A stretch of DNA of 62,291 nucleotides, taken from positions 1 through 62,291 of the IMG/VR virus record IMGVR_UViG_3300006750_000007; one strand, 5' to 3'. This DNA is from a virus. Taxonomy: Duplodnaviria; Caudoviricetes. The notes beneath the pieces are model-generated. The model saw only the letters and a program-made list of their open reading frames with translations. It did no database searches and was not told the origin of the DNA. Positions 33,456-61,815 of this stretch are shown one piece after another. Position numbers and translations under genes: made by a program. How positions within the stretch are numbered: the first letter of the stretch is position 1; each line of letters starts with the position of its first letter.

Positions 33456-35291
33456 ATGGCTAACAAGAAAAAACAAAAATTGTCATTTGCTCAAAGAGCA
33501 GAAAGAATAATGAAAAAATACGAAGCTAGACCTGACGATACTGCTGCTCAGGATTCTAAGAACCGTGAACTTAGTGTTCTACAAGAAGAACAAAAATTAG
33601 AAATGCAAAACAGAGCTATGGAAGCTGCAGAAACTATGAAGTCTCTGGGCTATGGTCACATGTTAGCTTCTGATGAACCTCAACAAGGTCCACCTCAACC
33701 TTCTCAAGAAGAGATGATGGCTATGCAACAGCAACAAGCTATGATGCAACAACAAGGTCAAGGTATGCCTCAAGGACAACAAATGGCTGCTTATGGTGGG
33801 CACATAAATAGATATAAATGGGCTAAACCTACCAAAGAAGACGCAGAAGCTGTAAATAAAGTATTGCCTAAATGGATGCAACATGCTTACGGAGGTGATA
33901 TTAATATGTATCATTCTGGAGGAGAAGTAGGACATACTCATGATGATACTAAAATGGGACCGAATCCCTATAATAATATAAATGCTGCTCGTGAAAAGTA
34001 TGAAATAGCACGTAGAAAATTTAAACCTAAAGGATTTAAAAAAACTAAATATCATTTAGAAAATTTACCAGAAGCAGAAGAATATCGCGAAGCATTAAGA
34101 AATGCTCCTAAACATGTATTAGAGCAATATGATATAAACAGATCAAAGCATTATAGTTCTCCTATAGAGATGTTAAAAGACTTTGATGAAAGAAATACTA
34201 CAAAAACTAAGGCTCCGATTGAAAATTATAATATTTATGATGACTATAAGGCAAGTACAGATAGTTTAAATGAATTGGCTTTTTTAGAACAACAAGCAGA
34301 ACTTGGAAAGCACACGGGAGCAATGGCAAATAACTATGACCATTTTAAAGACAGAGCAGATTATGCTAGTTATAAAACGGATATGAGTCCTTCTCTTAAA
34401 AAATATTATGATGATAATATTAAAAAAATAGGTATTGAAGGGCAACAAGGATTTTATCATTCTCCTGATTATGCTATACCTAAAAAAAATGTTTATAATA
34501 AAAAGTATCCTTTAAGTTCTTCTAATTATTTTTCTGAAGATGAATTAAAGGCTAAAGGTACAGCAGAAAAAGCAGCTAAAGCTAAAGCAGACAAAGAGCG
34601 TGCAGAATATAATAAAATAGTAGCTGCAGGAGGTAGAAACTTTATAGAAAGCAAAGCTTACGGTGGGCATATGAATAAGTATGCGCCTGGAGGAGAATTT
34701 GAAGCTGAATCTGTTAACCCTTGGATTGCAGCTGGACAATTAGCTCCTGATGTATATGGTCTTGCTCAAAACTTAAGACCAGGTGATGACTTTACATCTA
34801 AAAAGATGGATTCAAATATTTATACAGATACTAGTGCAGAAGAAGCTGCTATTGATAGAGCTACTGGTTCTGCTGGGGCTGGACTTAGAGAGAATTTAAG
34901 ACGACTTGGTTCTGCTGGAGCTAAATCTGCAGCAGTTACTGGAGCTACTCAAATAGCTACTGGAGCTGGAGCTCAAAAAGCAGGAGTAATATCTCAAGCT
35001 CAACAACTAGATGATAAAACTAACTTAGGAATAGAAGCTCAAAATAATGCATTAATTAATGCAGATGCTCAATTCAATATGCAACAAGAAGGAGCTAGAA
35101 GAACAGCTACTGAACAATATCTTAGAAACATCGGACAAGAAACTGTTCCTGGTATAGCACTAGACCAAACGCAAAATGAAATGCAAGCTGCAATAATTAA
35201 AGCGCTAGGAAGTGGGGACTATGCATACGAAGGAGGAATAGAAGATTTAATTTTAGCCTTTCAAGGAGGACAAGCTAAAAAAGGAGAATAA
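33456..35291 (+). CDS. internal virion cargo protein with AYGG repeats
   Basis: SFAQRAERI N-terminus, Q/M-rich tract, Ala/Gly-rich C-terminus. Confidence 0.6.
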   Translation: MANKKKQKLSFAQRAERIMKKYEARPDDTAAQDSKNRELSVLQEEQKLEMQNRAMEAAETMKSLGYGHMLASDEPQQGPPQPSQEEMMAMQQQQAMMQQQGQGMPQGQQMAAYGGHINRYKWAKPTKEDAEAVNKVLPKWMQHAYGGDINMYHSGGEVGHTHDDTKMGPNPYNNINAAREKYEIARRKFKPKGFKKTKYHLENLPEAEEYREALRNAPKHVLEQYDINRSKHYSSPIEMLKDFDERNTTKTKAPIENYNIYDDYKASTDSLNELAFLEQQAELGKHTGAMANNYDHFKDRADYASYKTDMSPSLKKYYDDNIKKIGIEGQQGFYHSPDYAIPKKNVYNKKYPLSSSNYFSEDELKAKGTAEKAAKAKADKERAEYNKIVAAGGRNFIESKAYGGHMNKYAPGGEFEAESVNPWIAAGQLAPDVYGLAQNLRPGDDFTSKKMDSNIYTDTSAEEAAIDRATGSAGAGLRENLRRLGSAGAKSAAVTGATQIATGAGAQKAGVISQAQQLDDKTNLGIEAQNNALINADAQFNMQQEGARRTATEQYLRNIGQETVPGIALDQTQNEMQAAIIKALGSGDYAYEGGIEDLILAFQGGQAKKGE

Positions 35292-35302
35292 AAAAATACA
35301 AC

Positions 35303-38011
35303 ATGGCAAATAACGCATTCAAATCAAATATATATCATAAGCCTGGACAAGCTAAATACAAATCTCAGTTTGTTCCTATGCCTTTAGATTTTATGGCTAA
35401 ACAAATAGCAGGTAAACAAGCTAAGTATGATAAGCAAGATTTGCTTATGGATAAAGATGCCTTATGGGACCAAGTTTCATTACCTGGTTATGATACTAAA
35501 TATGTAGAGGATAGAAAAAAGCAACTCACTGAATTACAAGAAACTTTTGCAGGAAAAGATTTAGGTTCTTCTCAAGTACAAAAAGAGTACGCTAAAGCTA
35601 TGAGAAAATTTAGAGATGATCCAGATAATAAAAAAGTTAAAGCAGCTGTAGATCTTCATAATAAATATCTAGCTAGAAGAGAAGAATTAAATAAGAAAGG
35701 AGCTATAGCTGATGCTCCAGTATGGTTCAGAGATTATGAAAAAAAATATAAAGAATATACTAAAGAAGGAGGATTAGGATTTCTTGGTCCTGGACTTGGT
35801 AGTCATCTTATTACAGAAGGAGTAGACATAAGAGAACATGCAGAGAAACTATATAATAATATGGGAGAGTCTGGAGCTGACTATAAAAAACAGTTAAATA
35901 ACACTGGAATATATTATGAAAAAGGCAAAGTAGGAATAAGTGGAAAAGATATATCAGATAAAACACGAGCTGGACTTAGATCTTTTGTTGAAGGACCCGC
36001 AGGAAAACAATTAAGCGCAGAGTATGACGCATTAGTAGAAGATGGAATGATAGATGAATCAAAAATCTCTAAAGGAGACTACATTAAAGATTATCTATTA
36101 GGCGTTGGTTCAGAACGTATTCATATGAAATATACTGGTACAGATGCTGCTGCTTTAAACACACTAAGAAAAGAAAAGAAAGAAGCAGATGAAAAAGTTG
36201 TTTATGCTCCTACTGGTTTAGAACTTGACGAAACAGAAAGTAATAAAACTACCATGTTAGATTTAAAAAATGACATGAATGATTTTGATTCTAAAATAAC
36301 AGAATTTGAAGAACAAATAGCAGCGAAACCTGTTCATATGTTTGACCCTATCACATATGACGAACAAGGTAATAAAATATATAGCGATAGAGATAAAGCA
36401 TATAACATTGAAGTTGCTAAAGAAGATGCTTATTTAAACTATCTTATATCAGAAAGAGATGCTATTAAGAAAACATTTGATGCAGAAGATGCTAGATTAG
36501 ATGCAGCATATGATAAAAGTGTAGATAGAGCTTCTATAATTAATGCTACTCCTCTTAAAGGTACGTGGATGGGAGATATATTAAGTAAGTCTTATAGTGA
36601 TCCTAATCAAAAACAAGAAAATATAAGTAATATCGTTAATGGAACAGCTGCTTCATTAGGATTAGAAGGAGATGAATTAAATAAGTTTAATATTGGAATG
36701 CAAGCAACTTCTGAAAATGAAACTTTAGCTGCTGCGTTACAAATATTCGAAAGTGGAGAAGGAAGTAACGAAGCAGGAACGTTATTCGGTTTTGAAGTAT
36801 CTGAAGGAGGCAACTTAACTTATGGTAATCTTCAAAAATTATTTAACGAATTAGGAGTAGATATAGATGTGACTAGCGATGGTCTTCATTCACTTGGTTC
36901 TACAGTAATTATGAAACAAGAAAGTCCACAAGCAAATTCAAGCAAGATTAATTATTGGAGAACAAAATTAATTGAAGGAGTAGCTGCTCAAAATGGTGTA
37001 AATTTTAAAGATATTACGAGTATTGATGGAAAAGTACAATATGAAAAAAATAATATATTAAATGATTTTACTACTAACTTTAGTCAAATCGCTACTTCTC
37101 AATTAGATAAAGATAAATGGAAACAAAATAAAATAGCTAGTGGAGAAGGTGGAGTAGTTAATTATAATCATAATGTAGGACTAGGTGTACCTAAAGGAGA
37201 CTTAGTTATTTATAAAAATGGAAGTACTAAAACATTTAAAGCAAATGACAAATTTATAGAAGCTGACATGAATAATAATGCTAGTAGTTGGGGATTATAT
37301 AGTAGAGACGGAAGACCATTAGAAGAGGCATTATTAGGAAATGAAGCATATACAGGATTTATTTTTGATTTGAGTCAAATATCAGATGCTAAAGTAGATA
37401 AACTTTATGGTGACAAAAAAGAACGAGACGCTAATGGGAAAGTAGTTGGAGAAGTAGGAGAAGGATATACATTTAATGTAAAAATTCCTTATACTTACAC
37501 GAAAGCGAATGGAGATATAGGAAAAGGAGAAATAAGAAGAGACATCTATGCGACAGAGCCTGTAGGAAATAATGGTAGCTATGCTAATGAAACAAGAATG
37601 TATCAGAAAGAAAATAGAGACCAAGCATACAAAATAAATCCTCTTTCTGAAGTTGTTAAAAATTATGCATACGACAAAGACTCTCGTTCAAGTAGTAGAA
37701 TCACTAGTCAACTGATTACTCAAAAAGAAACTGCAAGTACAGAACTTGCTAATTTAGCTCTTAACTATGTTTTAAATGATGCTGGCGCAACAATGAAAAC
37801 AGTTCCTGTATATAGAGGAGGAATGGTTGATGGATTTGATGCTGTATTTAGTCTTACTGGTAAAAGCGAAGATGCTATTGAAAAGTACTTTACTACTGAA
37901 GATGACATTGATGAATTTTTAAATGATATGACAAACTTAGTTCAGTTAGCAGAAACAGGAGAATTAGATCAAAAGGAAATAAATGCCATATTGGACGAAC
38001 TATTAAAATAA
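35303..38011 (+). CDS. large cargo/ejection protein
   Basis: 902 aa, YKSQFVPMPLD N-terminal motif, no Cys, precedes the giant genes. Confidence 0.6.
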   Translation: MANNAFKSNIYHKPGQAKYKSQFVPMPLDFMAKQIAGKQAKYDKQDLLMDKDALWDQVSLPGYDTKYVEDRKKQLTELQETFAGKDLGSSQVQKEYAKAMRKFRDDPDNKKVKAAVDLHNKYLARREELNKKGAIADAPVWFRDYEKKYKEYTKEGGLGFLGPGLGSHLITEGVDIREHAEKLYNNMGESGADYKKQLNNTGIYYEKGKVGISGKDISDKTRAGLRSFVEGPAGKQLSAEYDALVEDGMIDESKISKGDYIKDYLLGVGSERIHMKYTGTDAAALNTLRKEKKEADEKVVYAPTGLELDETESNKTTMLDLKNDMNDFDSKITEFEEQIAAKPVHMFDPITYDEQGNKIYSDRDKAYNIEVAKEDAYLNYLISERDAIKKTFDAEDARLDAAYDKSVDRASIINATPLKGTWMGDILSKSYSDPNQKQENISNIVNGTAASLGLEGDELNKFNIGMQATSENETLAAALQIFESGEGSNEAGTLFGFEVSEGGNLTYGNLQKLFNELGVDIDVTSDGLHSLGSTVIMKQESPQANSSKINYWRTKLIEGVAAQNGVNFKDITSIDGKVQYEKNNILNDFTTNFSQIATSQLDKDKWKQNKIASGEGGVVNYNHNVGLGVPKGDLVIYKNGSTKTFKANDKFIEADMNNNASSWGLYSRDGRPLEEALLGNEAYTGFIFDLSQISDAKVDKLYGDKKERDANGKVVGEVGEGYTFNVKIPYTYTKANGDIGKGEIRRDIYATEPVGNNGSYANETRMYQKENRDQAYKINPLSEVVKNYAYDKDSRSSSRITSQLITQKETASTELANLALNYVLNDAGATMKTVPVYRGGMVDGFDAVFSLTGKSEDAIEKYFTTEDDIDEFLNDMTNLVQLAETGELDQKEINAILDELLK

Positions 38012-38020
38012 AATAATAAT

Positions 38021-41000
38021 ATGTCGGAAGAATTAGACCCAATAACAGGACTCCCAGGTGATCCTCCTGAGAAAGTAACTAAACTTACATTATCTAAAGA
38101 TCAAATTAAATCTTTAGCTAATAAAGCTAATCGATATTCTAGTCGAGGATTAAGCGCTACTCAAGTAGGAGGACCAGACGTAATAAAAGATATTAGACAA
38201 AAATATTCTGATATTGAAACTAAACCTGGCAAAGTTCATTTACAAAATATAGATAAACTATATAAAGGTTTAGAATATGCTGGTTTAAAGCATAAAGCTA
38301 AACTTGCTGAAGAACAAGGATTCTGGGGAGAACTTGGAGGAGCTGTTGCTCAAACTGCAGCAGAAATTGTTGGTGGTACATTAGAAGGTGTAGGTTACTT
38401 AGGTGATCTTACTCACTGGGGAGATATTATCTCAGGAGGAGACGGAGACTGGGAGAACTGGTTATCAAGCGCTGGTTCAAGCTTAAAAGAATATGTTGCT
38501 GAAGCAGCACCAATACACGAAAATCCATTAAATCCTTCTACTAGAGAATGGTTTCTTTCTGGAGTTCCAACTGTAGCGTCATTTGTAGGAATGATGATAC
38601 CTGCAGTAGGTACAGTTTCAGGATTATCTAAAATAGGAGCATTAGGTAAAGCTGCTAGAATATCAAGTAAAACTAGCGATTTAGCAACGCTTCTTAAAGC
38701 AGGAAAATCAATAGAGATTGCAAAGACTATTTCTGTCGGAGGAAACAGAGTCAAAGGATTATCTACTGCTATAGTATCTCGTCACATTGAGAACATGATG
38801 GAAGCTAACGGAGTTTGGCAAGAACAAAAACAAAAACTTATTTTTTCAGGAGTAGATTATATGACTGCAGAAAAGGAAGCTAGTGAAGCTGCAATGCAAG
38901 TATACAATCAAAACTGGGTAATGTTAGCTCAAGATTTACCTCAATATATGATGTTGGGTAGAGGAATGAATGCTGCCAGAGGAGTTAAATCTATTCGTCA
39001 AGCAGCTAAAATGGGAGACGATGTAACTAAGTCTGCATTTAAAAAGACACTTGGAGTAGTAGGAATAGGAGCATCAGAGGGGGCTGAAGAAGCATACCAA
39101 TATGTAGTATCTCAAGATGCTATGTACATGAGCGATTATGCTAATGGTTTAGTAGCAGAAAAAGGATTTTCAGAAAGACTTGGAGAATATATTAAAGAAG
39201 AAGAATTCTTTGATTCAGTATTTTTTGGTGCTTTAGGTGGAGTAGCAATGAACACTATGGGGAAACCTATTACTAGAGCTGGAGATGGAATAGCTAATAT
39301 GGCTAGACATATAACAGGTAGAGAATCTAAAGATGGTTTATGGGGAGGATTTAAAAAAGATTGGAAAGAAGATCCTAGAGTACAAGAACAAATACATAGA
39401 GCAGCTAAGATATCTTTCTTATCTAAACAACTTGCTGAAGCTGCAGAAAAAGATGTTAAGTTAGCATACGATAACTTAAGAAATCAAGGGGTTGCTGATA
39501 TGGTTATGGAAGCTGCAGCTGTAGGAAACTATGATAGAATGGTTAACGAGATTAAAGAACTTCAAAATATGACTCCTGAGCAATTAGAAGAGTCTCAAGT
39601 CACTGAAGAATTTTTAAATGAAATTCCATCTATCTTAAAAGAAGCAGAAGAAATTAAAGACATGTGGAACGCAGAAACTAAAAGCACTCTGCCTAAGTAT
39701 GTAGGTACAATGGTTTCTGCTAAATACAAGTTAAAGAAATTAAAAGATCAACAAGGAGGATTACAGGACGAGTTAATGAAAGCTAACGAAGACTTTAATT
39801 TTGGAGAACTTCTTACTGAAGCTGGTCAAGATTACTTAAAGAACGAATACATTATTCAATCCCTGAAGAGATCTATTGAGCAGGCTGAATTCATACTTAA
39901 GAATAAGCCTCACATGAGCGAGTGGGAGAAGACTCAATTAAAAGAACAAATAGGAATTAAAGATGAAAAAACAGGAGAGTGGGCATCAGGAAGTTGGAAT
40001 GAAGAATTAGAAAACGCTAAACAATTTAGAGTAGATTCTAAAGCATCAACAAAAAAAGAATTTAAAAATTCTATTGAACTTAGTAATAAAGATAAAGAAT
40101 TAATTAAGAGAATAATAACTACTCCTAGTTTAGATGTAGTTAAAGCTCAAACTAGACTTAATTGGAATACAGCTAATATTAATTCTCATCTTAATTCTTT
40201 AGTTAGATTAGGACAAACAGAATATCAAACTCAAATAGAAGACTTTCAAAAAGCTCAAGTAAAAACTAATGAGAAGATTGGTAAAATTAGACAACTTTAT
40301 AATGATGTAAATTCTGGACAAGAAGCAACATTAGAACCTCAACTAGGTGAAGATGGTAAATACTATGAGCATGTTAGACCTTTAAATCATTTCAATAATC
40401 AATCTAAGATTAGAGAAGCTGAAGAAATATTAGAGACTCTAGATGAAGCAGAGAAAAAAAGATTTGCTCCAGTAATAGAAGAAATGAAATCTATCGTTGA
40501 TGATAACAGATCTGTATATCAAAAACGAGCTAGACAAAAGAATAACAAAGCTAAAAGAATTAAAGGTCTTAAAGGATATCATAGAGTAAATAGATTAGCT
40601 AAGAAGTTAAATGCATTTCGTGAAAATAACGATCCTAGATTTAGAGAACTTACTCCTAGCGAATTGTTTATTTCTGACCAAGATGTATTCAGAGTTACTT
40701 ATAAAGGTAAAGACGGAGTACTTTCTCAAGAAGAAGGGGAGATGACATTTACTCCTAATGATGGAGGAATTCCTCATATTATATCAGGTAGAACATCTAA
40801 ACAAACTCTAGAACAATTAGGAATAGGAATGATTAGTGAGTACGCTTATCCATTAGAGTTCTCTGTTGAAGGAGATTCTCTAGGTATTTGGATAGGAGAT
40901 AACTTAATGTCTTTCAGTACTTTAAATCCTCTTAGTTCTATTAAATGGGATAAGAATGAAAACCTAGCTTCTATTACATTAAATGATTCAAAAGGTAATC

Positions 41001-44000
41001 CTGTTGTAATTACTAACCCTCAGTTAGTTGCAGAGTTATCAGAATTTGTATATTTGTACCAAGAATTGGTAGATGAGTTCTCTAAAGAAGAGGAAAATGT
41101 ATTTTTACCTGAACACGGAGTAACAGTTCAATACAATACATCTAATCCTAATAAGTCTAAATTATATAAGACTGATGAGAATGGACAATTATATGAAGTA
41201 CTAGGAGAACTACCACTACAAGAAAATGGAAAGTACACTATTAAAGGTGTAATACTTAACAAATTTTTAGATAACTTTAAGATAGGCGTACTTACGCCAA
41301 TGTCTAAGAATAAAATAATTAAAGATAGAGACTATGCAAACAATACAGCAAAAGCTAAACAACAAACTCAAGAACAGGCAGCTAGCCAAGAAGCTGGCTT
41401 CAATGAGCCTACAGGACAGACTGAAGTTTCTGAAGCAAAGAAGCGAGGAGAAGAAGTAGAAACAGAAGTAGCTGATGATATAGAAGAAACTGAAGAGGTG
41501 GGAGCAGTAGCTCTATCTGAGTCAGGTGATAATGTAGAAGTAGAAGGGGAAAAGGGTAAGATAACTGTAAATTCTTCTGATACTATAGGAGGAAACTTTG
41601 ATAATTTATCTCCTGAAGAACAAGCTGAATTAGAAGCCGCTGGATTTGGACAAGGTCCTAATGAAGAACAAGGCCGTAATGAAGAACAAGAACAATATGA
41701 AAATGAAAATGAAGAAGAAAGTCCATTTAAAGAAGATGTGGATGAGACATCTACTGAAGATGAGCAACAGACTACAGAGGACGTAGAAACTATTATTTCT
41801 GAGGAAGCTTGGGAAGAATTTGTAGATGAAGATTATGTTTCTCAAGAAATCTTAGAAGGAATAGCTAAGAAAATGAGAGACGGAATTCCTTTTACAGAAA
41901 AGGAACTAGCAGTATATCAATCAAAAGCTGGAGAAATAGAAAGTATAAATATAATTCATTCAACTAAAGAAACAGAAAATCCTCAATCAGGATTCTTTAC
42001 TGTAAAATTAGCTACAGGATTAATTGTTAAATCTCCTTCTCATAAGTTATTAATTAATGATAATGGAGAAATAGAACAAAGAAAAAGTAAATTAAAAGAT
42101 GGTTCTTTAGAGGATCAACCTTATGTATTTAACTTTGATATGTTAAACAATCCTAATGTTAAAGAAGGACACGAAGTTAAGTTTGTTCATACTCCTACTA
42201 AATATTCAGAAGAGCAAGATGTAGAACCTGGAGAAGAATTTATTAACGCTCCTATATATGTATTCTATAAAGACGGAAAGAATTGGGCTCCTGTAGGATT
42301 ATTACAAGCAGGAAATACTAAGGAAAGAAAACTAATCTTTGACGCATTAAAGACTAAAGACGAAGTTAAGGCTACGATTAAGAATCAGAAAGTTAAACAA
42401 GAGATGTATTCTTCTAATGCATCTAACTTTAGAAATAGAATAGACCATAATACTGGAGAAAAAGTTTTTCAAAGTGCTCATGATTCTTTAAGTACTGCTT
42501 GGGTAGAAACTAGAGATGGTTTTGAATTAACTAATGAAGCGCCTATTATTATTCTTTCTACAGAGGGAACCTCAAAAGCAACTGATACTTCATCTGAACC
42601 TAGATTCTACGATAGAGATTTAGATCCTAAAATAGCATCTGATGTTTCTAGGTCTGAAATTAAAAAAATGAAAGGAGACCAAGAAGGTCACATATGGGCA
42701 GCTGTAATAAATCCTAGTGGAATATATGTTCCATTTAAATTATCTACTAGTAACTTAACTCAAGAAGCTAAAGATAAAGTAGAAGAGTTAATACTCATGG
42801 GAGATTATGATGCTATAAATGAAATTACTCATTCTAACTATGATTCAGATTTATCTAGGGAATATGATAAATTCTTTCAAGTTATAAATACAGGAAAATC
42901 TAAATTTATAAGATTCAAACATAAAGGAATAATATATAAAATAGATCATGCTCAAATAAATAAAGGTTTAAAAGGAGAAAAGATGACCATGTTTCTTCAA
43001 GCATTAGACTTAAAAGGAAAAAGCCTACAATCTATAAAAGATAAAAAAGGAAAAACAATAAAGAAAGAAGTAACCTTAGAAGAGTTTAAGGGAATGATTT
43101 CTGAACTGTTAAACAAAAAGAAATTTAATGTTATTAATAGTAACTTAAGAACAGGAGAGAATTATGTTAGTCCTATTAGTGGTAAAGAGTATAACTCATA
43201 CGAAGATTACTTAACTGGAGCTAAAGATATAGATGGAAATGAAAATGCTGAATCTCCTGCTGAAGGACCTAATGATGCAAACTCTATTCTTCAATCTGAC
43301 CTTTGGGGACATAATGGAAGTTTCTTCTTTGACCAAGGTGTAGACTATGAAATAGATGAAGTTTCTAAAAAGAAACCTGCAACTAAAAAAACAGTAAAAG
43401 CGAGTACTCCTCAACCAACACAAACTACTGAGGTTAAAGAAGGTGTGTCTGAAGTATTTAAAGATAATAAGGAATTATCTAATATAGGTACAGAACAACA
43501 ATATTCTAATTATTTAGACACTATATTCCCTGATAGTCAAACAAATGAGATATTTCATCATTGGAGTATGAAAAATATACCAATAGGAGAAAAAATAGGT
43601 GAAGATATTTTAGGTAGAGTCCAAGGAATTTGGCTATCAAAAAACAAAGAGCATTGGAAGGATATTGTAGGAAATAAAGCTAAACGGTTAAAGCAAGAAT
43701 TAAAAGAAAACTATATAATAGTAAATGCTAAGAATATTTTTGTTAGTTCTACTGTAACGTCTCCTGATGGTAAAAGTTTCCCAAAAGGGTATGATGCTAT
43801 ATTTGCTTATGATGAAGCTCCTAATAATTATGAAGGCCCATTAAAATCTGAATTTAAAACAATAGATGATTTTGAAGCAGTAATCAAATCAAAAGAGCAA
43901 TTGCATGAATTAGGTTCTAAAGAAGATGTACAAGGATTTAGAGAGTTTGTTAGTAAATCAACACAAACTAGTGAGGTTGATTTAGGTACTGAAACAGCTC

Positions 44001-46696
44001 CTAAAGGAGGTAAGGTAGATATTGATATAGTTAAAGGAAAATCTCCTCAACCTGGGGCAGTAGTAGCATTTAGAACTGAGGGTAAGACAGAGCAGAATAT
44101 GATTGATGCTCTTGAAGATAATGCTGTAGGTAATCCTTTTGGTCCTTATGCGGCTATAAAAGAAAAGACTGTTGTATCAGTTACTAGATTTTTAGATTGG
44201 TTAGAAGGTAAAGGAGATACAAACGTAATGCAAGATTATAGAGATGCTTTATTGGCTAAAGTTCCTGAACTAAAAGGTAAGACAATTTATTACTATAAAG
44301 ATTTAGGAAGACCTTCTCATGCAACAGCTTTAGATTATTTCCTAAATAAGGCAACTACTCAACCACAAACTAGTGAGGTTGAAATACCTAAAGTAAATAT
44401 TGGAAAACCTACAATAGATGTAAACATAGGTCCCGATACTGGAATTTTTGCAATAAAACAAGGCAATAAGGTAATAGGAGATATAAGTGTAAGTTTTGAA
44501 GGAAATTTCAAAGAAGGAATTATACCTAAAGGTACAGGAGAAGCTTTTATTGCTGGAGTAGAGATATATGAAGATTCAAATAAAGGTGAAAGATTTGGAG
44601 TAAGTGCTTATGTAGAAGTTGCAAACTATATGGCAAACCTTGGATACACATTAAGTTCTGGCATAAGCACTTCGGAATCAGCTAAAAGAGTTTGGGAAAG
44701 TCTAGTAAAAAGGGGGTTGGCAATTAAATCTGGAAACAGTTTTTTATACAAACCAACACAACAAACTAGTGAGGTTGAAGTATTATCAATAAGTCAACCT
44801 ACTCAAAGTGAAGAAAATTGGATAATGGAAGTTCAACAAGAAGATGGTAGAATATTGAAAGTTCAGACTATGAGTATGAGAGATAGAACATCTGACAGAA
44901 AAATAGAAGATGTAACTATAGCTATTGTAGATAAAAATACAGATATAGAATTAAATGAAAGTGAGATTAAAAAAGATTTACCTAGAGGAGGGAAAGAGAA
45001 ATTTAGATTACTTAAAGAAAGAAGAGACGCTCAAGCATCTGCTATATTAGGAGAAGCGTTAACAGCTTCTTTTAAAGGAGTGATGTTAGTTAATGTTTCT
45101 GAAAGAACTGCATACTTAAATGCTATAAGAAATGAGTTTAAACCAATTAGTAAGGTTGAAGGAAACATAACTCAGGATAATAAAAGCTACTATAGAGGTC
45201 AAATAGAAAAGCCAACTATTGATAAAGATGGCAATCTTGTTCTTTATGGAATAGAAGATGACTTATATAAAAGAGCAGGTTTAAAAAGTAAAGGAGTTTC
45301 AATGACAGATAATTTAGAAACTGCTGTAGGATATGGTGAAGGTCAACTTGAGGGTGCTGAAGCAAGATTTGATGATGAATGGGGCTATGATATAAATACT
45401 TGGGAAGCTGAAGATGCCTATAATGAACTAAAAGATAATGGATATTGGTTAATACAAATACCTAAAAACATTTCTAATGAGATAATAAAAGAAGCAGGGG
45501 AAGTTAAGGTTATTGGTAATAAAATTATAATCCCTAAAGGTCAATTCAAAATTGAACAGATTAGTGAAGTTGAGACTAAGAAAGAAGTAAAAAAAGAAAA
45601 ATCAGAACCTTTATTTTCAGAAGAACTTACTCCTCCTAAAACACGAAAAGTTAAAGCAGTTAAGAAACATAAAGGTACTGCTCAAGAAGTAACTACTGCT
45701 AAGATTAATGATATAGTTAAAGAGTCAGATAACTTTGAACTTGCTACTGTAGAACTAGAAGACGAGTATGGAGATATAATTGACGAAAGTGTTTATCTAG
45801 ATACAGAAACTAATGAACTAATAGAAAGACAATCTAATGCTGTTGTTAGATATATCAATGGAGATCCTATAGATTCATCTAAGCCTGATGTAATTGCTGG
45901 TGCAGCTGTAGGTAATTTAGTCGATATCTTAGGTAGAGAAATCTTTGCTGGCAACAAAATTAATTTTGAAGCTATTCAAAAAGAAGCTAATAAAGCTAAC
46001 GAAGAATCAGGATACAACATAAAAGTTGGAGAAGATGTAGTGACTAAATTGAAGCTAATACTTAGTAATGTTTACGATGAGCTTATTGCTAGTGGACATA
46101 CTATAGTATCTAAAGATGTATTTATTACTGCTCAATATAATAATAAAGAAGCTCAACTATCTGGTCTTTCTGGTATAGGAGGAACTCTCGATTTAATAGC
46201 AATAGATAAGAATGGAATTGCTCATATTATAGATTTTAAAAATATTAAGCTCACTGAGAAAAATAAAAACCGTATATTTGAAAATATATTTGGAGGAGGA
46301 AGATATACATCGAAAGTAGAATATTGGTCTAACCAACAAACAGCATATAAAATTATAACGGAGAAATACGGAGTTCCCGTAGGTTCTATAAATATTTTAG
46401 GGGTGAGTACTGAGTACGAATACGACGAAACTGATAGCGAAATTGAACTTAAGAATGTGACTCTTACTACAGAGCTAGTAAAGACTCCAAATAAGTATAT
46501 ATCTCCATTATCAAATGGACTTATTCAATTAGAAGAAAGCGACATCATCAAAAAAGAATTACCTCCTAGAATTGGAAATGAAGTATTCACAGGAAAAAGT
46601 GCAACATCTGATCCAACTGAATCATTTGACTTAGATGTTGAAGATGATTCAAATGATGCAGAAGCTGAAGCATTCTTAAAAAATAAATGTAAATAA
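38021..46696 (+). CDS. giant polyvalent ejected virion protein (2891 aa) with internal effector-domain array and C-terminal PD-(D/E)XK nuclease
   Basis: Gly/Ala-rich hydrophobic N-region, acidic linker, repeat-delimited modules, GTLDL...IIDFK...NQQTAY. Confidence 0.8.
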   Translation: MSEELDPITGLPGDPPEKVTKLTLSKDQIKSLANKANRYSSRGLSATQVGGPDVIKDIRQKYSDIETKPGKVHLQNIDKLYKGLEYAGLKHKAKLAEEQGFWGELGGAVAQTAAEIVGGTLEGVGYLGDLTHWGDIISGGDGDWENWLSSAGSSLKEYVAEAAPIHENPLNPSTREWFLSGVPTVASFVGMMIPAVGTVSGLSKIGALGKAARISSKTSDLATLLKAGKSIEIAKTISVGGNRVKGLSTAIVSRHIENMMEANGVWQEQKQKLIFSGVDYMTAEKEASEAAMQVYNQNWVMLAQDLPQYMMLGRGMNAARGVKSIRQAAKMGDDVTKSAFKKTLGVVGIGASEGAEEAYQYVVSQDAMYMSDYANGLVAEKGFSERLGEYIKEEEFFDSVFFGALGGVAMNTMGKPITRAGDGIANMARHITGRESKDGLWGGFKKDWKEDPRVQEQIHRAAKISFLSKQLAEAAEKDVKLAYDNLRNQGVADMVMEAAAVGNYDRMVNEIKELQNMTPEQLEESQVTEEFLNEIPSILKEAEEIKDMWNAETKSTLPKYVGTMVSAKYKLKKLKDQQGGLQDELMKANEDFNFGELLTEAGQDYLKNEYIIQSLKRSIEQAEFILKNKPHMSEWEKTQLKEQIGIKDEKTGEWASGSWNEELENAKQFRVDSKASTKKEFKNSIELSNKDKELIKRIITTPSLDVVKAQTRLNWNTANINSHLNSLVRLGQTEYQTQIEDFQKAQVKTNEKIGKIRQLYNDVNSGQEATLEPQLGEDGKYYEHVRPLNHFNNQSKIREAEEILETLDEAEKKRFAPVIEEMKSIVDDNRSVYQKRARQKNNKAKRIKGLKGYHRVNRLAKKLNAFRENNDPRFRELTPSELFISDQDVFRVTYKGKDGVLSQEEGEMTFTPNDGGIPHIISGRTSKQTLEQLGIGMISEYAYPLEFSVEGDSLGIWIGDNLMSFSTLNPLSSIKWDKNENLASITLNDSKGNPVVITNPQLVAELSEFVYLYQELVDEFSKEEENVFLPEHGVTVQYNTSNPNKSKLYKTDENGQLYEVLGELPLQENGKYTIKGVILNKFLDNFKIGVLTPMSKNKIIKDRDYANNTAKAKQQTQEQAASQEAGFNEPTGQTEVSEAKKRGEEVETEVADDIEETEEVGAVALSESGDNVEVEGEKGKITVNSSDTIGGNFDNLSPEEQAELEAAGFGQGPNEEQGRNEEQEQYENENEEESPFKEDVDETSTEDEQQTTEDVETIISEEAWEEFVDEDYVSQEILEGIAKKMRDGIPFTEKELAVYQSKAGEIESINIIHSTKETENPQSGFFTVKLATGLIVKSPSHKLLINDNGEIEQRKSKLKDGSLEDQPYVFNFDMLNNPNVKEGHEVKFVHTPTKYSEEQDVEPGEEFINAPIYVFYKDGKNWAPVGLLQAGNTKERKLIFDALKTKDEVKATIKNQKVKQEMYSSNASNFRNRIDHNTGEKVFQSAHDSLSTAWVETRDGFELTNEAPIIILSTEGTSKATDTSSEPRFYDRDLDPKIASDVSRSEIKKMKGDQEGHIWAAVINPSGIYVPFKLSTSNLTQEAKDKVEELILMGDYDAINEITHSNYDSDLSREYDKFFQVINTGKSKFIRFKHKGIIYKIDHAQINKGLKGEKMTMFLQALDLKGKSLQSIKDKKGKTIKKEVTLEEFKGMISELLNKKKFNVINSNLRTGENYVSPISGKEYNSYEDYLTGAKDIDGNENAESPAEGPNDANSILQSDLWGHNGSFFFDQGVDYEIDEVSKKKPATKKTVKASTPQPTQTTEVKEGVSEVFKDNKELSNIGTEQQYSNYLDTIFPDSQTNEIFHHWSMKNIPIGEKIGEDILGRVQGIWLSKNKEHWKDIVGNKAKRLKQELKENYIIVNAKNIFVSSTVTSPDGKSFPKGYDAIFAYDEAPNNYEGPLKSEFKTIDDFEAVIKSKEQLHELGSKEDVQGFREFVSKSTQTSEVDLGTETAPKGGKVDIDIVKGKSPQPGAVVAFRTEGKTEQNMIDALEDNAVGNPFGPYAAIKEKTVVSVTRFLDWLEGKGDTNVMQDYRDALLAKVPELKGKTIYYYKDLGRPSHATALDYFLNKATTQPQTSEVEIPKVNIGKPTIDVNIGPDTGIFAIKQGNKVIGDISVSFEGNFKEGIIPKGTGEAFIAGVEIYEDSNKGERFGVSAYVEVANYMANLGYTLSSGISTSESAKRVWESLVKRGLAIKSGNSFLYKPTQQTSEVEVLSISQPTQSEENWIMEVQQEDGRILKVQTMSMRDRTSDRKIEDVTIAIVDKNTDIELNESEIKKDLPRGGKEKFRLLKERRDAQASAILGEALTASFKGVMLVNVSERTAYLNAIRNEFKPISKVEGNITQDNKSYYRGQIEKPTIDKDGNLVLYGIEDDLYKRAGLKSKGVSMTDNLETAVGYGEGQLEGAEARFDDEWGYDINTWEAEDAYNELKDNGYWLIQIPKNISNEIIKEAGEVKVIGNKIIIPKGQFKIEQISEVETKKEVKKEKSEPLFSEELTPPKTRKVKAVKKHKGTAQEVTTAKINDIVKESDNFELATVELEDEYGDIIDESVYLDTETNELIERQSNAVVRYINGDPIDSSKPDVIAGAAVGNLVDILGREIFAGNKINFEAIQKEANKANEESGYNIKVGEDVVTKLKLILSNVYDELIASGHTIVSKDVFITAQYNNKEAQLSGLSGIGGTLDLIAIDKNGIAHIIDFKNIKLTEKNKNRIFENIFGGGRYTSKVEYWSNQQTAYKIITEKYGVPVGSINILGVSTEYEYDETDSEIELKNVTLTTELVKTPNKYISPLSNGLIQLEESDIIKKELPPRIGNEVFTGKSATSDPTESFDLDVEDDSNDAEAEAFLKNKCK
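43420..45571 (+). repeat. six dispersed in-frame 16-nt repeats, consensus ACAAACTAGTGAGGTT
   Basis: copies at 43420 (15/16), 43963, 44365, 44761 (exact), 45142 and 45556 (13/16); spacings 543, 402, 396, 381 and 414 nt. Confidence 0.9.
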
Positions 46697-49600
46697 TGAG
46701 ATATTGTCCTAATATAAATACAAAAGAGTTTAAAGAGATGGAAGCATCTCTAGGTAAAGAAGTTGCAACTACAGTATGGTTTAATAATAATGGAAATCAT
46801 ATAGAAATGGACCGTAATGGAAAACCATCTCAATTATTTAAAGATGCTGTTTCTTTTTATGGAAGTAGATCTGAAGCAATTAAAATTAAAGCTCAAATAT
46901 TTACTAAGTCTTATCTTGCTAATGATAACTGGATTAATAATAAAACAGAACCTACCATTATGGATATGGACCCTGATTTTAATTCTGTTGAAACATTTAG
47001 AATTGAACATGAAGGAATTATTAAATTAGATGAAGCTAAAACTTGGTTAGAACAAAGAGGCATTCCTTTTAATTCTGCTACTCAAATAGTAGAAATAGCA
47101 AATCATATTCCTGCTTACGCAGCAGGATCATATACTGATGGACTTGTTTATTTATCTTTAAATTCTCCTATAGGAACAGCATATCATGAAGCATTTCACG
47201 CTGCCTTTTCTGGATTCCTTACTCCCGCTAAAAGAAAAAAGATATTAAAATTAGCAAAAGAAAGATACTATAAAAATGAAGACCCTAGAAACGTATACAT
47301 GAATGTATCCATTGATAACTATCGAGGATACTTTCAAGAATATGGTTCGCAAGAAGGTTATGAAATGAGTGTATTAGACAACAAATTAGTAATAACTAAA
47401 GACGGAGTCAAAGTATCTAATGAAGAATTTAAAGATATAGTTGAAGAGTTAAATGAAATGGTGCTAGAAGAAAGACTAGCTGATGAATTTAGAATGTTTG
47501 TTGAATCAGAAGGAACTTATGCTCCTACTGAGAAAGGACTAGTTGCTTTCTTTAAAAGTTTATTGAAACATATTAAAGACTATATGAGTCATAAGTCAAC
47601 TATCGATACATTCTTTAAAGATATTGAAGGTGGTAAATTTGCTCAAAAAAGATTTAAGTATTTAAAAGGAAAGAAAGATAAGTATTCTATTTATGATGAC
47701 TTTACTACTGATCAAGTTGAATCAGTAATAAATATTATTACTAGTAAGTTTGCTACTACTATAGATATGCAAGACATTAAAGATGTTGATCCTAACGAAG
47801 TAATGGAGAATCTCAGATCTATATTTGTTAAAAGCATGTTCAGAAAATTAAATCCTGAAACTAATAAATACGAAGCTATAAACGTTGAAGATGCTAAAGC
47901 ACTTTATCAAAGAATGACCAATGGAGACCTTACACTTCCTACAGGAGTTAAAAGGACTAAACAATGGAAAGAACTTTTTAGTATCTACCAGAACTGGTAT
48001 AGTAAAAAAGATGAGTCAGGCAATACTACATATAGAGGATGGGCAGAATTAGCTAAAAAAGAATTAAAAGGTTTTGGATATACTATAAAAGGAGATTTAG
48101 TTGAAAGTGCTGAAGAAGAGTCTTTAGGTAGTGGAGAAAAAGATCATAGTAAAGCAGCCATAGAAAATAATAGAAAAGATACTTTATCTCAAAAGGTTAA
48201 AAACTTTTTGTCTAGAATAGTTAAGTATACTCCTGACGGAAGACCTTCTATGTCATTTTTAGGAACTACTGAGTTTATGCCATTCTCTGAAATGTATCAG
48301 GATGTAGCTCATATTGTTACTAATACTACTGATTGGAACTCTATGATGTCAGAACTTAAAAGAAATGCAGCTCAAAAACCAGCTGTAGGCTATGTGTACA
48401 GACAGCTTAAAGAAAAAATGGAGAGAGGAAACTTAGAAGATCTAAAGTTTATCGCTTCTTTCTATTCTAATATGGAAATGACTTATGTTGATTTTATAGG
48501 TGGAACTCAAGAAGTAGTATATGATCAGGAAACAGGAATGCCTACAGTATCGATTAAATACTTTAACTCCAATCAAAATAAAGTAGGAAGAATGTTAAGT
48601 CGAAGATGGTCTGCTAGCGCTCACCGTCCTGATGGATTAGGTTTATTTGAACTTAAGGGACTTAAGTTCAAGATTAATCAAAATAAAGTCGCTCTTCTTG
48701 AAAGAGAATATAAGATTATAAAAGAGATTAGAACAAAAGATTCTATAATTGAGGATCGTCATATTGACGCTTTAATTAGTTTTATGAATACTATTGGAGC
48801 TGATATTAGACAAGTTGATTTTAAGAAATTATTAGATGAAGGATTAATTATAGATAATAATTTATTGAAAGGTGGAGAACTATATAGATATGTTTATTCT
48901 GGTCAATCTATTCATTCTAATAATAAGAGAGGATTCGGAGTTCTTATTGATTCATTAATAGATAATAGAGATCCTTACAAAGAACAGTCAGGAATAATTG
49001 AACGATTTATTAGAATAGGAGAACAATTTGAAATTGAAAGTCAAGGTTCATTTATAAATAGCGCTAACAAATCTGTATATCCTGTTAATATGCATACTAC
49101 GATGAGTAGAATATTTAATGCATTTAAGAAATACAGATCTTCTTTATCTGATTCTTATTGGAATAAGTTTGTAGAACAATATAAAGGAGACAAAGCTTTA
49201 TTTCCTCAAGGACAAACAGAGAGTGTATATGATGACTTATTCTTAAGTTCTATAATGGCTACTCATCCTAAAGGAGCACATAATAACTTCTTTACTAAAA
49301 TATTTAAATTTGAAGACTTTGATGGATTCAAAATGAAAGGAGAAGTTGACCATACTTTTGATTATTCATCTCTTACTCCAGTTACAACAACATTAAATAG
49401 GCTTAACTTATTTATAAATAATTCTAGTAAGGGTACTATGAAAATAGCTCTTCCTACAATGGCTGATAGAAATAGAGGAGTATTTGTAAGTCTTCCTAGA
49501 ATATCTACACAAAAAGGATTACACCAATATTCTAAAAAGAGTATTAATAATATATTAAAGGGAATGATTTATCAAGACCTAATGAGAATAGGTCAAGTTT

Positions 49601-52600
49601 CAGAACAGATAAAAATAAGCTCTAGAAATAAAACTCAGTTATTATTTACTCCAGATAGCAAAGGTAACTATAGAGGTCTTGAATTTCATCAATTCCCTTT
49701 TTTAAACAAATCTGATAATCCAGCAGTAAAAAAATTATTAGCTTATGCTAAATCTTCAAAAGAAGATAAGTCTGTATTAGCTGAAGAAGATGTTGAAATA
49801 TGGCTAGATGAAGCAATGCTCATATCTAAAGATAATATAGAAAGAGAACAATTAATTAAAAACAAAAAAGATAAAGATTCTTATGTAGATATAACTGAAT
49901 TTATAGATTCTCAAGTAGAAAGTTTAAAAGAAAGATTAGACGAATACGGAATAGAATCAAATAAGAATAAGAAGAAAGCTCAATTAGATTATAGTGCTCT
50001 AGCTAAACTTTATACTAAGTCAGGAAGTGTATCTGAGTTTAGAGAAAACCCTGATGCATTCTATAGAGATTTTATTATTGCTGGTCATGTTAGTAAGATG
50101 TCATTTATTAAAATGTTGACAGGAGATCTTTCATTATATAAAAGTACTGAAGCTTGGTCTAAGCGTGTTGGTGGATTAGGAACTCCTGGACAAGAAAGTT
50201 TTCAATCTGACTTTATTCCTGGAATAGAATATGGAGATAAGCCTACTTATAACATGGCTGTAATCAAAGATATTTATAAGAAAGACACAGTCAATTTAGA
50301 TTTCTTAGCTTCTGTATTTGGAGAAAAACCAGTTAAAGCATATAGAAAAGGGAAAGGGTCCAATAAAACGGATGCTATGGGATTCACTACATTAGACAAG
50401 CATATGAGAAAGATGCAAGCTCATGATATGTGGACAGATGAACATCAAAAAGCTTACGAAAACTATAACTCTAGAGATCGTCTTTCTAGAAACATAAATG
50501 GCAAATTCGAATATGTAAGAGAAGATGGAGTAATAGTTCGTCCTAAACTTACACCTATTAAAACATACCATGATGGCATGTATTTAAAAAACGGTAAGAT
50601 GGTTCGTATTCTTATAAAACACTCGACAATGCCTTTGTTAATGGAGTTTACTAAAAACTATCCTCATTTTGAGCAACTTAGAAAAGCTATGTTGAAAATG
50701 AATATTGATGAAGTAAATATGGATTCTGCTGTTAAAGTTGGAGCAGAACATATAACAGAATTAAAATATGATGAAAGTGGACTTATTTCTAATTTAGATG
50801 ACCTTCATTCTATGGAATTAGAAACTAGATTCCAAAGAGTTCCTCAAACTATTCCTAGTAAAGTTAGAGATTCTAAATTAGGTTCTCAGTTAATGAAGTT
50901 AATCGTAGCCAATTTAAGAAAGAACTATTCTAATTATGAATTTAATGTTGGAGGAAAGATTGTTAAAGGAGATGAAATGATTGAAAAATATCATGATGTT
51001 CTTGAAGCAATGATAGAAAATGGAAGAGAAAAGTTATTTAAAGAAATTGGATACGATAAATTTCTTGCTTCTAATCAAGATAAAGAATCAACTAAAAAGT
51101 TTTTACAAAATCTTAGAAATATTCTTGAGAAATCTGGAGAAGAAAGAGATCTTCCTGATAACTACTTAGATGCCCTAGCTATTGTTGATAGCATTGTAGA
51201 AGATGTCGAACGTTCTAATTTTAAAGTTCCTTTGGCTTTTCCAACTATTCAAAATAAGTTTGAACAAATTATTCTTTCATTAGTAAAGAATAACGTAATG
51301 AGTCAAACTATTAATGGCGAATCTCTAGTTCAAATTGCTGAGTTTGGAGCTCATAAAACTAGTAAAGAACTTAAGTTTATTCACGGCGAGAAACATGTAG
51401 TAGATTTTAAAGATATATCAATATCTTATTTTGTAAATGTAAGAGGAGGCAAGTTTAAAAGCGCCAAAGAAATATCCGTAGGAGGAATAGTTCAATATAA
51501 TGGAGATAATTATCATGTTACAAAAAAGAAAGGCGATAAAATAACAATAGTCAAAATTGAAGCTGCTGAAGTAGACATACCTTATAAATTAGCTGAAAGA
51601 TTAAAATTACCTAGACATCCTGTTACTGGAGAATTCATTGTAGACCCTGAAAGTTTCCCTGAAGAATTACGAAATATAGTTGGTTATCGTATCCCAACTC
51701 AGGGTAAATCATCTATGCTACCTTTACGAATTAGAAAGATTTTAACTCCCGCACAAGGAAAAGCAATAATTGTACCTGGAGAAATTACTACTCAAATGGG
51801 GTCGGATTTTGATATTGATAAGTTATTCTTAATGATGCCTAACTATGATATCAAATGGAAAACTAAAAATGGAGATGTCTTTGACGAAAAAGGATCTTTT
51901 GTTTCACAAATGAAAAAGAGAGGTTTTGACATTTCTAGAAAAGATGCTAGCAAGTTAATGGAAGATGAAGACTATGTCCAAGATATGACAATAATCTCTG
52001 ATTCAGGAGTTGCAGACATTGGAGACCTTATAGAAGCTAGGAAAAAAACATTATCATTTTTAAATAAAAAGTTTAAAGAACTTAATCCTAAATTAGTAGC
52101 TGAAAAAGTTTCTTATGATCTTGAAAATCTCCACGGCGCTAAAAGAGAGTCATTAGAAAATGCATTTCTAGATATTGCATTAGGCATTCTTACTAATCCT
52201 ATAGTAGGTAAAGAGCTTATTACTTCTGTAGATTCTCAAACGTTTCCTCAATTAGTAGAAATAATGGCTCCAAAGTTAAAAGATTATATTTCTGAGTTAG
52301 ATCCTGCTAATTGGTCTACTGAAATAGACCTTGAGATAAGAAATAAAATGGGTAAAATTGGTATTGGTATTTATGCTGTAGCATTAAATGGTCAGGCAAT
52401 AAGACAACACTCTAAGCAACCTGTTTTATTAAATGAGCAATACTCAGTAAAGTTTGACGGCAAAAATATTCAAAATGTATCTGAAGAATACGATGAATTA
52501 GGTAATCCAATTACAGAACATTTCAACAAGCACTTGAATATGTCTGTGGATAATGCTAATGAGCCGATGATGGAAGTATTAAATGATAATGCATTTACAT

Positions 52601-59272: not shown

Positions 59273-59491
59273 TTAATCATTAAAATAATTTCTAACAGTT
59301 CTTTGCCAGAACCACATCAAAATTATTACCGTAAAAATTATTACACTATTTACAATCCATTTTTCTGTTAAAATATTAATAATAGATACTACTAATAATA
59401 CTAAAATCAAATGTAATGCTATAGTGCTAATTAAAGCTGGCTTACTACTAGCAAGCCAACTACAAAATGGAAATTTTCTTTTTTTCATCAT
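59273..59491 (-). CDS. small two-TM membrane protein
   Basis: basic N-terminus and two hydrophobic helices. Confidence 0.55.
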   Translation of the reverse strand: MMKKRKFPFCSWLASSKPALISTIALHLILVLLVVSIINILTEKWIVNSVIIFTVIILMWFWQRTVRNYFND

Positions 59492-59530
59492 CTTAAATTT
59501 TAAAAATTAGACACTCCATTAAGTTTTCAT

Positions 59531-59560
59531 TTGTGTTTTTACTTGTGTTTTTACTTGTGT
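59531..59560. repeat. 2.5 tandem copies of TTGTGTTTTTAC
   Basis: direct reading, intergenic. Confidence 0.7.
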
Positions 59561-59601
59561 GTTAATTTATCACGGAAATGATTCGTTTTAGTCTTCTTTA
59601 T

Positions 59602-59868: not shown

Positions 59869-59869
59869 T

Positions 59870-60399: not shown

Positions 60400-60410
60400 A
60401 ATTTAATGTT

Positions 60411-60973: not shown

Positions 60974-60983
60974 ATTATTTTTA

Positions 60984-61446: not shown

Positions 61447-61489
61447 CTTTGTTTTGGTTTAGTGTGGTTTATTTCTTTGTTATATTTAA

Positions 61490-61723: not shown

Positions 61724-61753
61724 AATTTATAATTTTTTAAATCGTTCATAACT

Positions 61754-61812: not shown

Positions 61813-61815
61813 ATA

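Follow-up and report, generated by a model that had tools for sequence, protein, structure and literature searches.

A conserved in-frame DNA joint bounds polymorphic domain cassettes in a giant protein gene of marine crAss-like phages

The DNA analysed here, hereafter the window, is the whole 62,291-base stretch of IMG/VR virus record IMGVR_UViG_3300006750_000007 (positions 1 to 62,291). It belongs to a crAss-like phage and carries its structural module, with Pfam matches to Crass_capsid (E 9e-127), crAss_MUZ (E 4e-134) and tail ring proteins 1 and 3/4, and PHROGs matches to terminase and portal. Downstream of the muzzle gene lie open reading frames (ORFs) of 688, 611 and 902 amino acids (aa), followed by the two giant ORFs listed below, the first of which, P0001, is the subject of this report. 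A first-pass annotation, made from the sequence alone, had proposed that P0001 contains a series of unrelated effector domains separated by a short repeat, and that recombination at this repeat adds, drops or reorders domains without breaking the frame.

38021 to 46696, plus strand: giant ORF P0001, 2891 aa, adjoining the virion RNA polymerase gene on its upstream side
46696 to 54258, plus strand: virion RNA polymerase (vRNAP), 2520 aa, with a phmmer match to 6vr4_A (phi14:2 gp66), E 2.2e-21

The repeat is a 16-mer, read as the codons CAA ACT AGT GAG GTT (QTSEV), that occurs six times in frame within P0001. We recovered the copies at the places and with the mismatch counts originally reported, at 43420 (one mismatch), 43963, 44365 and 44761 (exact), and 45142 and 45556 (three mismatches each); their spacings of 543, 402, 396, 381 and 414 nucleotides (nt) are all multiples of 3, and every copy is in the frame of the ORF. 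Across the window the 16-mer has seven matches at up to three mismatches versus 0.71 expected, and none of 100 shuffles reached seven. The seventh match, at 6291-6306 with two mismatches, lies in the terminase gene outside the QTSEV frame and is probably due to chance. The 16-mer is the core of a longer joint of about 28 nt, in which DNA is conserved from approximately -10 to +17 around the CAA codon; the consensus is roughly A CCA ACA CAA, then the 16-mer codons CAA ACT AGT GAG GTT, then GAA. The CAACC or CAAC said to precede the repeat is real and forms part of this conserved stretch. The six joints are as follows.

43411 to 43438, plus strand: joint 1 (QTTEV, 1 mismatch); left-hand homology with the related contig L148 ends at 43439
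43954 to 43981, plus strand: joint 2 (exact 16-mer); left edge of a 402-nt deletion in a contig of sequencing run X2
44356 to 44383, plus strand: joint 3 (exact 16-mer); defined by the 16-mer match and comparison with the run X2 contig
44752 to 44779, plus strand: joint 4 (exact 16-mer); right-hand homology with L148 restarts at 44758
45133 to 45160, plus strand: joint 5, decayed (PISKV, 3 mismatches); same sequence in L148
45547 to 45574, plus strand: joint 6, decayed (QISEV, 3 mismatches); defined by the 16-mer match

The array begins at aa 1801 of P0001, and between and after the joints lie six units of 176, 129, 127, 122, 133 and 374 aa. They are mutually dissimilar (best BLASTP E 0.12), in agreement with the description of the intervals as unrelated, domain-sized units. 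We refer to them as cassettes, and the assignments below are taken up in a later paragraph.

43436 to 43963, plus strand: cassette 1, 176 aa, ART-PolyVal-like; PF18760 is matched by 8 of 9 scanned homologues, by 2 above cut-off, and the direct Pfam scan is negative
43979 to 44365, plus strand: cassette 2, 129 aa, fold unassigned; present or absent between near-identical strains
44381 to 44761, plus strand: cassette 3, 127 aa, GNAT-like; PF00583 is matched by homologue P0105 (22.2 bits, cut-off 20.7) but not by P0064, the second homologue scanned
44777 to 45142, plus strand: cassette 4, 122 aa, orphan; P0002 is its sole homologue among the best 150 hits, and it has no Pfam family
45158 to 45556, plus strand: cassette 5, 133 aa, putative ADP-ribosyltransferase (ART) fold; AlphaFold2 (AF2) model with a mean predicted local distance difference test score (pLDDT) of 81
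45572 to 46693, plus strand: C-terminal unit, 374 aa, PD-(D/E)xK nuclease-like; PF12705 is matched by homologue P0085 (22.2 bits, cut-off 22) and not by 3 other scanned homologues

Is it the DNA or the encoded peptide that is conserved at the joint? Codon usage provides a first indication. In 20 ORFs of the window Glu is encoded by GAA in 82% of cases, which bears out the remark that GAA is the usual codon, and by GAG in 18%; AGT accounts for 23% of Ser and GTT for 39% of Val. Because GAG, AGT and GTT are all minority codons in this phage, the chance of the observed codon string given QTSEV is about 0.008. We then pooled 67 distinct joints from all loci (up to two mismatches, open frame). All 67 have A at position -4, a third codon position that the search word does not cover, irrespective of the residue encoded. 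In the 23 variants that deviate from the 16-mer at one or two positions, 4 synonymous changes stand against 27 non-synonymous ones, where random mutation of the 15-mer predicts 20% synonymous. These variants (QTTEV, QSSEV, QASEV, PTSEV, QTSGV, QTNEV and others) are each one base from the consensus and retain the rare codons AGT-GAG-GTT; a TSEV located inside a domain is written with the common codons TCT GAA GTA. A reversed-pattern control gave no open-frame matches at one or two mismatches, and 4, compared with 37 for the true pattern, at three; since the three-mismatch class holds chance hits, the synonymous/non-synonymous argument is limited to the one- and two-mismatch class. DNA, rather than peptide, is conserved at the joint, because rare codons are kept and variants are mostly non-synonymous, and a selected peptide with free codons would give the opposite pattern. 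The proposal that the DNA is kept beyond what a linker needs is thus upheld, and codon freedom at QTSEV, which had been named in advance as evidence to the contrary, was not seen. The ACTAGT palindrome that had also been pointed out is indeed present in the core, but 16 of its 19 occurrences in the window fall outside joints and only 3 inside, and a special role for it was rejected on this ground.

These data also bear on an explanation in which the peptide is primary. QTSEV(E) would then be a protease site or an obligatory spacer, the polyprotein would be cut into effectors and polymerase during maturation or once ejected, much as MARTX toxins are, and DNA identity and exchange would be side effects of recent spread. 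The architecture of related loci is compatible with this. Whereas in the window the vRNAP start overlaps the P0001 stop (46694-46698) and the two are separate ORFs, the upstream protein and vRNAP form a single fused ORF of 3638-5447 aa in L063-L067 and of 4210 aa in L069, and in the former size range joints are found at the very seam where the window has its stop/start overlap. In the available portion of the phi14:2 study, gp65/gp66/gp67-type trios are described as fused into one polyprotein in some phages and "likely cleaved", and a zincin-like protease is reported in gp65 orthologues (bioRxiv 10.1101/2020.03.07.982082). The first five residues of both cassette models (2 and 5) have pLDDT below 50, which fits an exposed linker. 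On the other side, joint residues vary freely (T to A, S, N or I; S to T or N; E to G, D or K; Q to P or K), only 4 of 31 changes in the one- and two-mismatch class are synonymous, and rare codons are retained across phages whose polymerases are less than 30% identical. Pfam found no protease family in P0001 or neighbouring proteins, and P0001 has no HExxH or HxxEH motif. We consider it unlikely that the peptide comes first, and note that such a role would not exclude a joint that acts through its DNA.

Another possible function of the 16-mer is that of a translational or RNA signal. The 16-mer contains GAGGT, which could pair as a Shine-Dalgarno (SD)-like element and cause a pause between domains, and in the -1 frame it contains a tandem TAG TGA. 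No start codon follows the 16-mer at a usable distance, however, and at 34 gene starts in the window, whose leaders are A/T-rich, an SD-like tetramer lies upstream in only 2 versus a background of 18%. The phage and its host therefore seem not to use SD pairing; the SD reading was rejected on these counts, and we give a signal of this kind next to no credence. A/T-rich leaders are usual for phages of Bacteroidota, the presumed hosts of this phage group.

Orthologue comparison was the next source of evidence, and here cassette number varies between close relatives, with breakpoints at the repeat as predicted. A full-library HMMER search for relatives of aa 1801-2891 found 866 proteins. One of them, P0002, has 95% identity to P0001 across the first ~1840 aligned residues and 98% across the final 645. 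At the nucleotide level its contig, L148, aligns to window positions 35030-43439 at 97.4% and 44758-49693 at 98.0% identity. Between these flanks the window has 1318 nt, comprising cassettes 1-3, and L148 has 481 nt, comprising one cassette, and one break falls inside joint 1, the other inside joint 4. From joint to joint (533 nt), the L148 cassette matches a cassette of L058 at 95.5% identity, and the remainder of L058 cannot be aligned. We also compared the array with Logan contigs from four marine runs of other studies. In run X2, a 1047-nt contig differing at one other letter joins 43961 to 44364, an exact 402-nt loss of cassette 2 with 19 nt shared at the joint. Runs X3 and X4 contain a joint 43411 to 44750, consistent with the L148 form. 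Further contig joints (43419 to 45562, 43439 to 43959, 43978 to 44751 and 43422 to 44365) were not counted, since their sides are only 20-29 nt and may stem from joints of other phages. Strains that are 97-98% identical already differ in their cassettes, and turnover is therefore recent.

The same behaviour is evident among loci collected by an exact 16-mer scan of 2.9 million viral contigs, the composition of which is described below. In the 57 loci that carry the 16-mer in frame, BLASTN alignments end internally to both loci and within 25 nt of the motif in 62 of 169 cases on the left and 52 of 156 on the right (pairs are not independent). When the 300-nt flanks of 67 exact joints were clustered, 33 groups arose on the left and 34 on the right, paired in 41 combinations, with one right cluster found after four different left clusters and one left cluster before four different right ones. 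L006 and L013 are identical through GTT and unrelated beyond it, and L033 matches L012 to the left of the motif and L003 to the right. Between the same flanks, L020, L001 and L042 hold 0, 1 (339 nt) and 2 cassettes, and at a single site L003 is empty and L009 and L058 each hold a different cassette. The DUF7831 cassettes of L054 and L012, which sit in different contexts, are 87% identical, and the L001/L056 cassette is 93% identical between flanks of 68-72% identity. Cassette polymorphism, the positions of the junctions and transfer between distant backbones are shown by these comparisons. Domains have been added, dropped and swapped without a break in the frame, as the L148, X2 and L058 cases illustrate, and long open frames are preserved in every variant.

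All comparison sequences are metagenome contigs, and many Logan contigs end or branch at joints. The junctions could in that case be assembly chimeras at a short repeat, the repeat itself being a mere shared linker inherited with the cassettes. Several findings speak against this. The same arrangements recur in separate records (L001/L007/L026; L003/L028/L029/L036/L062), the L148 form fits the joints in runs X3 and X4, and long frames stay open throughout. The 19 nt shared at the X2 deletion joint fall short of the 31-letter words of which Logan contigs are built, which means that the reads must contain the words of the junction. An origin by misassembly is, in our estimation, extremely unlikely.

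The exact 16-mer scan returned 62 loci, of which 57 carry it in the QTSEV frame of an ORF of at least 258 aa; the search of other phages that had been suggested thus located the repeat in frame, distant backbones included. In these 57 the ORF is usually open across the whole 4-kb locus, the peptide context is (K/Q)P(T/A)QQTSEVE, and 46 resemble giant ORFs of vRNAP loci over 120 aa or more. The remaining 5 loci have frames of 6-34 aa and resemble chance matches. A 21-mer form of the joint is present in 14 of the 57 and has no match in 185,579 prokaryote genomes. Five records read over 20 kb each contain one ORF of 3638-5447 aa with joints between a gp65-like N-terminal part and the polymerase, and their vRNAPs are 22-31% identical to that of the window (BLASTP). 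Against L064, L065 and L067 the vRNAP catalytic region is 28-29% identical, and the joint is nevertheless the same base for base. In L066, joints at aa 3220 and 3392 of the 5447-aa ORF enclose a cassette of about 170 aa between the polymerase N-terminal and catalytic regions; cassettes bounded by joints thus occur at more than one site in the polyprotein.

Taken together, our results make it probable that the ~28-nt in-frame joint is a shared homology patch for cassette exchange in the gp65-like/vRNAP polyprotein gene of marine crAss-like phages. The joint would provide a common patch of homology between otherwise unrelated domain-coding cassettes that are all kept in one reading frame. Recombination between joints, within a single genome or between co-infecting genomes, could proceed by short-homology recombination, single-strand annealing or replicative template switching on co-infecting or concatemeric genomes. 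Its products would be whole-cassette deletions, insertions and replacements in which the ORF stays open, and each phage would thereby come to have a particular repertoire of enzyme domains (ADP-ribosyltransferase-like, acetyltransferase-like, nuclease-like and unassigned), borne by a protein that probably travels in the virion and is ejected along with the DNA. The joints would stay alike through repeated exchange, and the peptide (K/Q)P(T/A)QQTSEVE would most likely serve as a flexible spacer between domains. The recombination pathway and selection for exchangeability are what we infer from these patterns.

Several points weigh against a role as a homology patch. The joint (up to two mismatches) occurs in only 4 of 80 vRNAP loci kept from at least 490 candidates found by protein homology, all four on contigs from the 16-mer scan, and the closest polymerase relatives, L069 (45%) and L068 (39%), lack it, L069 lacking any array; for these reasons the joint is not a general crAss feature. 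The 57 loci were picked by exact match, so that identity of the anchor is partly ascertained. Most of the evidence comes from metagenome assemblies, which are prone to mis-joins at repeats, and no excised circles or recombination intermediates were seen among the contigs compared, a comparison that did not extend to reads. Joints in unrelated contexts share only short stretches of exact identity, with a median of 19 nt, at least 25 nt in 8% of 804 pairs and a maximum of 37 nt. Such lengths are near or below the requirement of RecA-type recombination. Neither RecT nor ERF annealing proteins were detected in five motif-bearing records. Finally, exchangeability may be a by-product of another function of the sequence and not itself selected.

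Which enzymes might act at the joint? Dedicated machinery, in the form of a site-specific recombinase or homing-like nuclease and an integron-like platform with free cassette circles, would accommodate the very tight conservation (16 nt near-invariant, about 28 nt in total, across distant phages), the precise junctions and the occurrence of joint-bounded cassettes at differing places in the polyprotein, such as the polymerase region of L066. But tyrosine (PF00589) and serine (PF00239) recombinases were found in 0 of the 5 motif-bearing records, 3 of which are at least 98% complete, in a scan that did not take in the window, itself a 62-kb fragment, or search for homing nucleases. Apart from the 6-nt ACTAGT, a frequent word in the window, direct reading of the consensus joint reveals no attC-like inverted repeat, and decayed joint copies persist in place. 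Machinery devoted to the joint therefore appears very unlikely, and the classical agents, tyrosine and serine recombinases and the annealing proteins RecT and ERF, were rejected on a count of 0 of 5 records each. An AAA_24 protein of about 225 aa, above the Pfam cut-off, is present in all three complete records (G003, G004 and G005; 111-117 kb). AAA_24 is a family that presumably includes Sak4-type phage recombinases, and the protein is a candidate phage recombinase. A more far-reaching reading, a "protein integron", would hold that the joint is a selected, dedicated exchange site, that cassettes are pooled among unrelated marine phages, possibly as circles or by way of a joint-specific nuclease, and plugged in frame into an ejected polyprotein, and that the nine-residue peptide is cut after ejection to free custom anti-defence enzymes. 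We regard this more elaborate scheme as distinctly improbable.

The cassettes themselves could be classified only in part. Scanned directly against Pfam and PHROG, neither P0001 nor any single cassette gave a family (best E at least 0.088, below cut-off), and at least two distinct effector-type domains are assigned in P0001 by way of homologues and the cassette 5 fold. The word "effector" in the first-pass annotation accordingly holds for the units with ART-PolyVal, GNAT and PD-(D/E)xK homologues and for the putative ART fold, and does not extend to cassettes 2 and 4, which have no assignable type. In a wide VIA-align search nearly all of the top 50 rows for the cassette 5 model were ART-superfamily chains, the best having a Z of 7.8 with a root-mean-square deviation of 2.7 over 80 aligned residues; the best Z is middling, and we assign an ART fold with moderate confidence. 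No Pfam family was matched by any of 8 scanned homologues of cassette 5, Foldseek gave nothing at E up to 1e-3, and a profile search of the PDB was likewise negative. For cassette 2 (AF2 pLDDT 72), no fold match was obtained, Foldseek was negative at the same threshold, and a profile search of the PDB gave only weak PIWI rows at E of 0.05 or more; the cassette has 24 high-scoring segment pairs to other proteins, at up to 87% identity within unrelated giant proteins. Homologues of the window cassettes, as found in the 866-relative search, occupy many positions in other giant proteins and also occur as small free-standing proteins. Joint-bounded cassettes in other loci include DUF7831 and cpYpsA SLOG domains. 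An anti-host or anti-defence role of the cassettes is plausible from their domain types.

Two further observations concern these domains. P0006, a representative protein of 5140 aa, contains a further long array, with five QTSEV-like joints (aa 1904, 4412, 4529, 4662 and 5036) and sequences homologous to cassettes 1 and 2. The opening stretch of cassette 1 (GVSEVF...YSNYLDTIFPDS; window 43436-43540, aa 1806-1840) is seen again, at 50-65% identity, in many of the 150 best hits, and in several other proteins a cassette-5-like ART-fold domain is situated between the two halves of this stretch, an arrangement that resembles nested domain insertion. The motifs GVSELF... and YSQYLD... were considered as a second family of joints and rejected, as each is present roughly once in a protein; they appear to represent the ART-PolyVal N-terminus in two halves, separated elsewhere by the cassette-5-like insertion.

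The array is located at the seam between P0001 and vRNAP, behind an N-terminal part that is conserved in giant ORFs of other crAss-like loci at about aa 95-1135 and 1370-1790 (tblastn). Between these two blocks lies a long acidic, Glu/Asp-rich stretch of low complexity (window 41430-41800, approximately aa 1140-1260). A related-locus search with the N-terminal 1200 aa found no relative among viral contigs, the C-terminal 1198 aa had no tblastn match in GenBank phages, and PDB sequence searches were negative for P0001 and for a 1191-aa ORF downstream. A late, virion gene neighbourhood, one of the marks of polyvalent proteins, was confirmed for P0001. In the accessible part of the phi14:2 study, proteins encoded beside gp66 are virion components (bioRxiv 10.1101/2020.03.07.982082), and in that of the PhicrAss001 atlas three RNAP-associated giants are among the cargo proteins detected in virions. 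Because its genomic position matches that of these virion homologues, P0001 is probably packaged and ejected with the DNA. At the far end of the window, on the minus strand, eight small ORFs (72-118 aa; 59273-62097) follow an exonuclease-like gene (57837-59207), and this block is probably the start of the early region.

Phages must constantly renew their counter-defence repertoire, and this locus offers a concrete route by which that could occur, through a universal in-frame DNA joint in a carrier protein that probably enters the cell with the genome, ahead of any phage gene expression. Exchange at the joint would explain how polyvalent proteins diversify without breaking giant ORFs. As a sequence handle, the joint may be used to catalogue hundreds of candidate injected effectors in marine crAss-like phages, mostly of unassigned fold. 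It also suggests a natural design rule for modular protein arrays, and the recent turnover makes the system accessible to experiment.

How does this arrangement compare with known systems? In MARTX toxins, unrelated effector domains are arrayed in one giant delivered protein that is mosaic between strains, and a cysteine protease domain cuts between effectors; in P0001 and its neighbours the searches described above gave neither a protease domain nor evidence of cleavage. An integron platform differs in its tyrosine integrase, seen in 0 of 5 records here, and in its attC-type imperfect inverted repeat, which the consensus joint lacks. Positional counterparts are the phi14:2 gp65-gp66-gp67 and PhicrAss001 gp47/gp49/gp50 blocks, which resemble this locus in lying behind the genes for muzzle and cargo proteins, in their giant size and in having the virion RNAP adjacent or fused. 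In contrast, the available parts of those reports mention no cassette array or joint, and a search of 50,697 GenBank phage records with the joint did not find it (all 88 matched records had E of at least 0.8).

Polyvalent proteins occur in phages and conjugative elements, include virion RNAPs fused to ART domains, and are delivered with the DNA; in the accessible text of the paper describing them, the "possibility of recombinational variability" is raised and no more, and the word "linker" does not appear (PMC5512222). P0001 resembles them in combining many unrelated effector-type domains in one phage polypeptide, and cassette 1 belongs, via its homologues, to ART-PolyVal, a Pfam family that takes its name from these proteins. 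It differs in that the polymerase is of the crAss two-barrel type (6vr4) and not the N4 type, and in having a conserved DNA joint and demonstrated cassette polymorphism. For cdiA, the available excerpt describes abrupt divergence after a short coding motif, the VENN-encoding sequence, with module homology running "precisely" from motif to motif and recombination proposed to reload toxins (PMC3150448). The joint is likewise a short conserved coding motif at which module homology breaks. According to the same excerpt, in contact-dependent inhibition the last domain alone is expressed, orphan modules are silent and each module has an immunity gene, whereas here all cassettes are translated as one in-frame tandem array in a phage virion protein, contiguous within one ORF and with no immunity genes between them. 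The promoter early stem-loop elements (PeSLs) of T4-type phages are, in the part of the report available, repeated DNA elements of ~100 bp that flank variable accessory genes, lie in intergenic DNA and comprise a promoter and a stem-loop terminator; recombination between them deletes, inserts or replaces genes, close relatives differ in this way, and mini-circles were demonstrated (PMC2839356). Equivalent deletions, insertions and replacements occur at the joint, but it is about 28 nt long, coding and bound to a frame, and mini-circles are not shown here; it works like a PeSL but is not a PeSL. A literature search found no paper on a conserved in-frame DNA joint in these proteins, "QTSEV" appearing only in unrelated papers. 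The pattern is real and well supported, its known relatives are the polyvalent proteins and VENN- and PeSL-type exchange, the mechanism is one we infer, and the new element is the conserved in-frame DNA joint.

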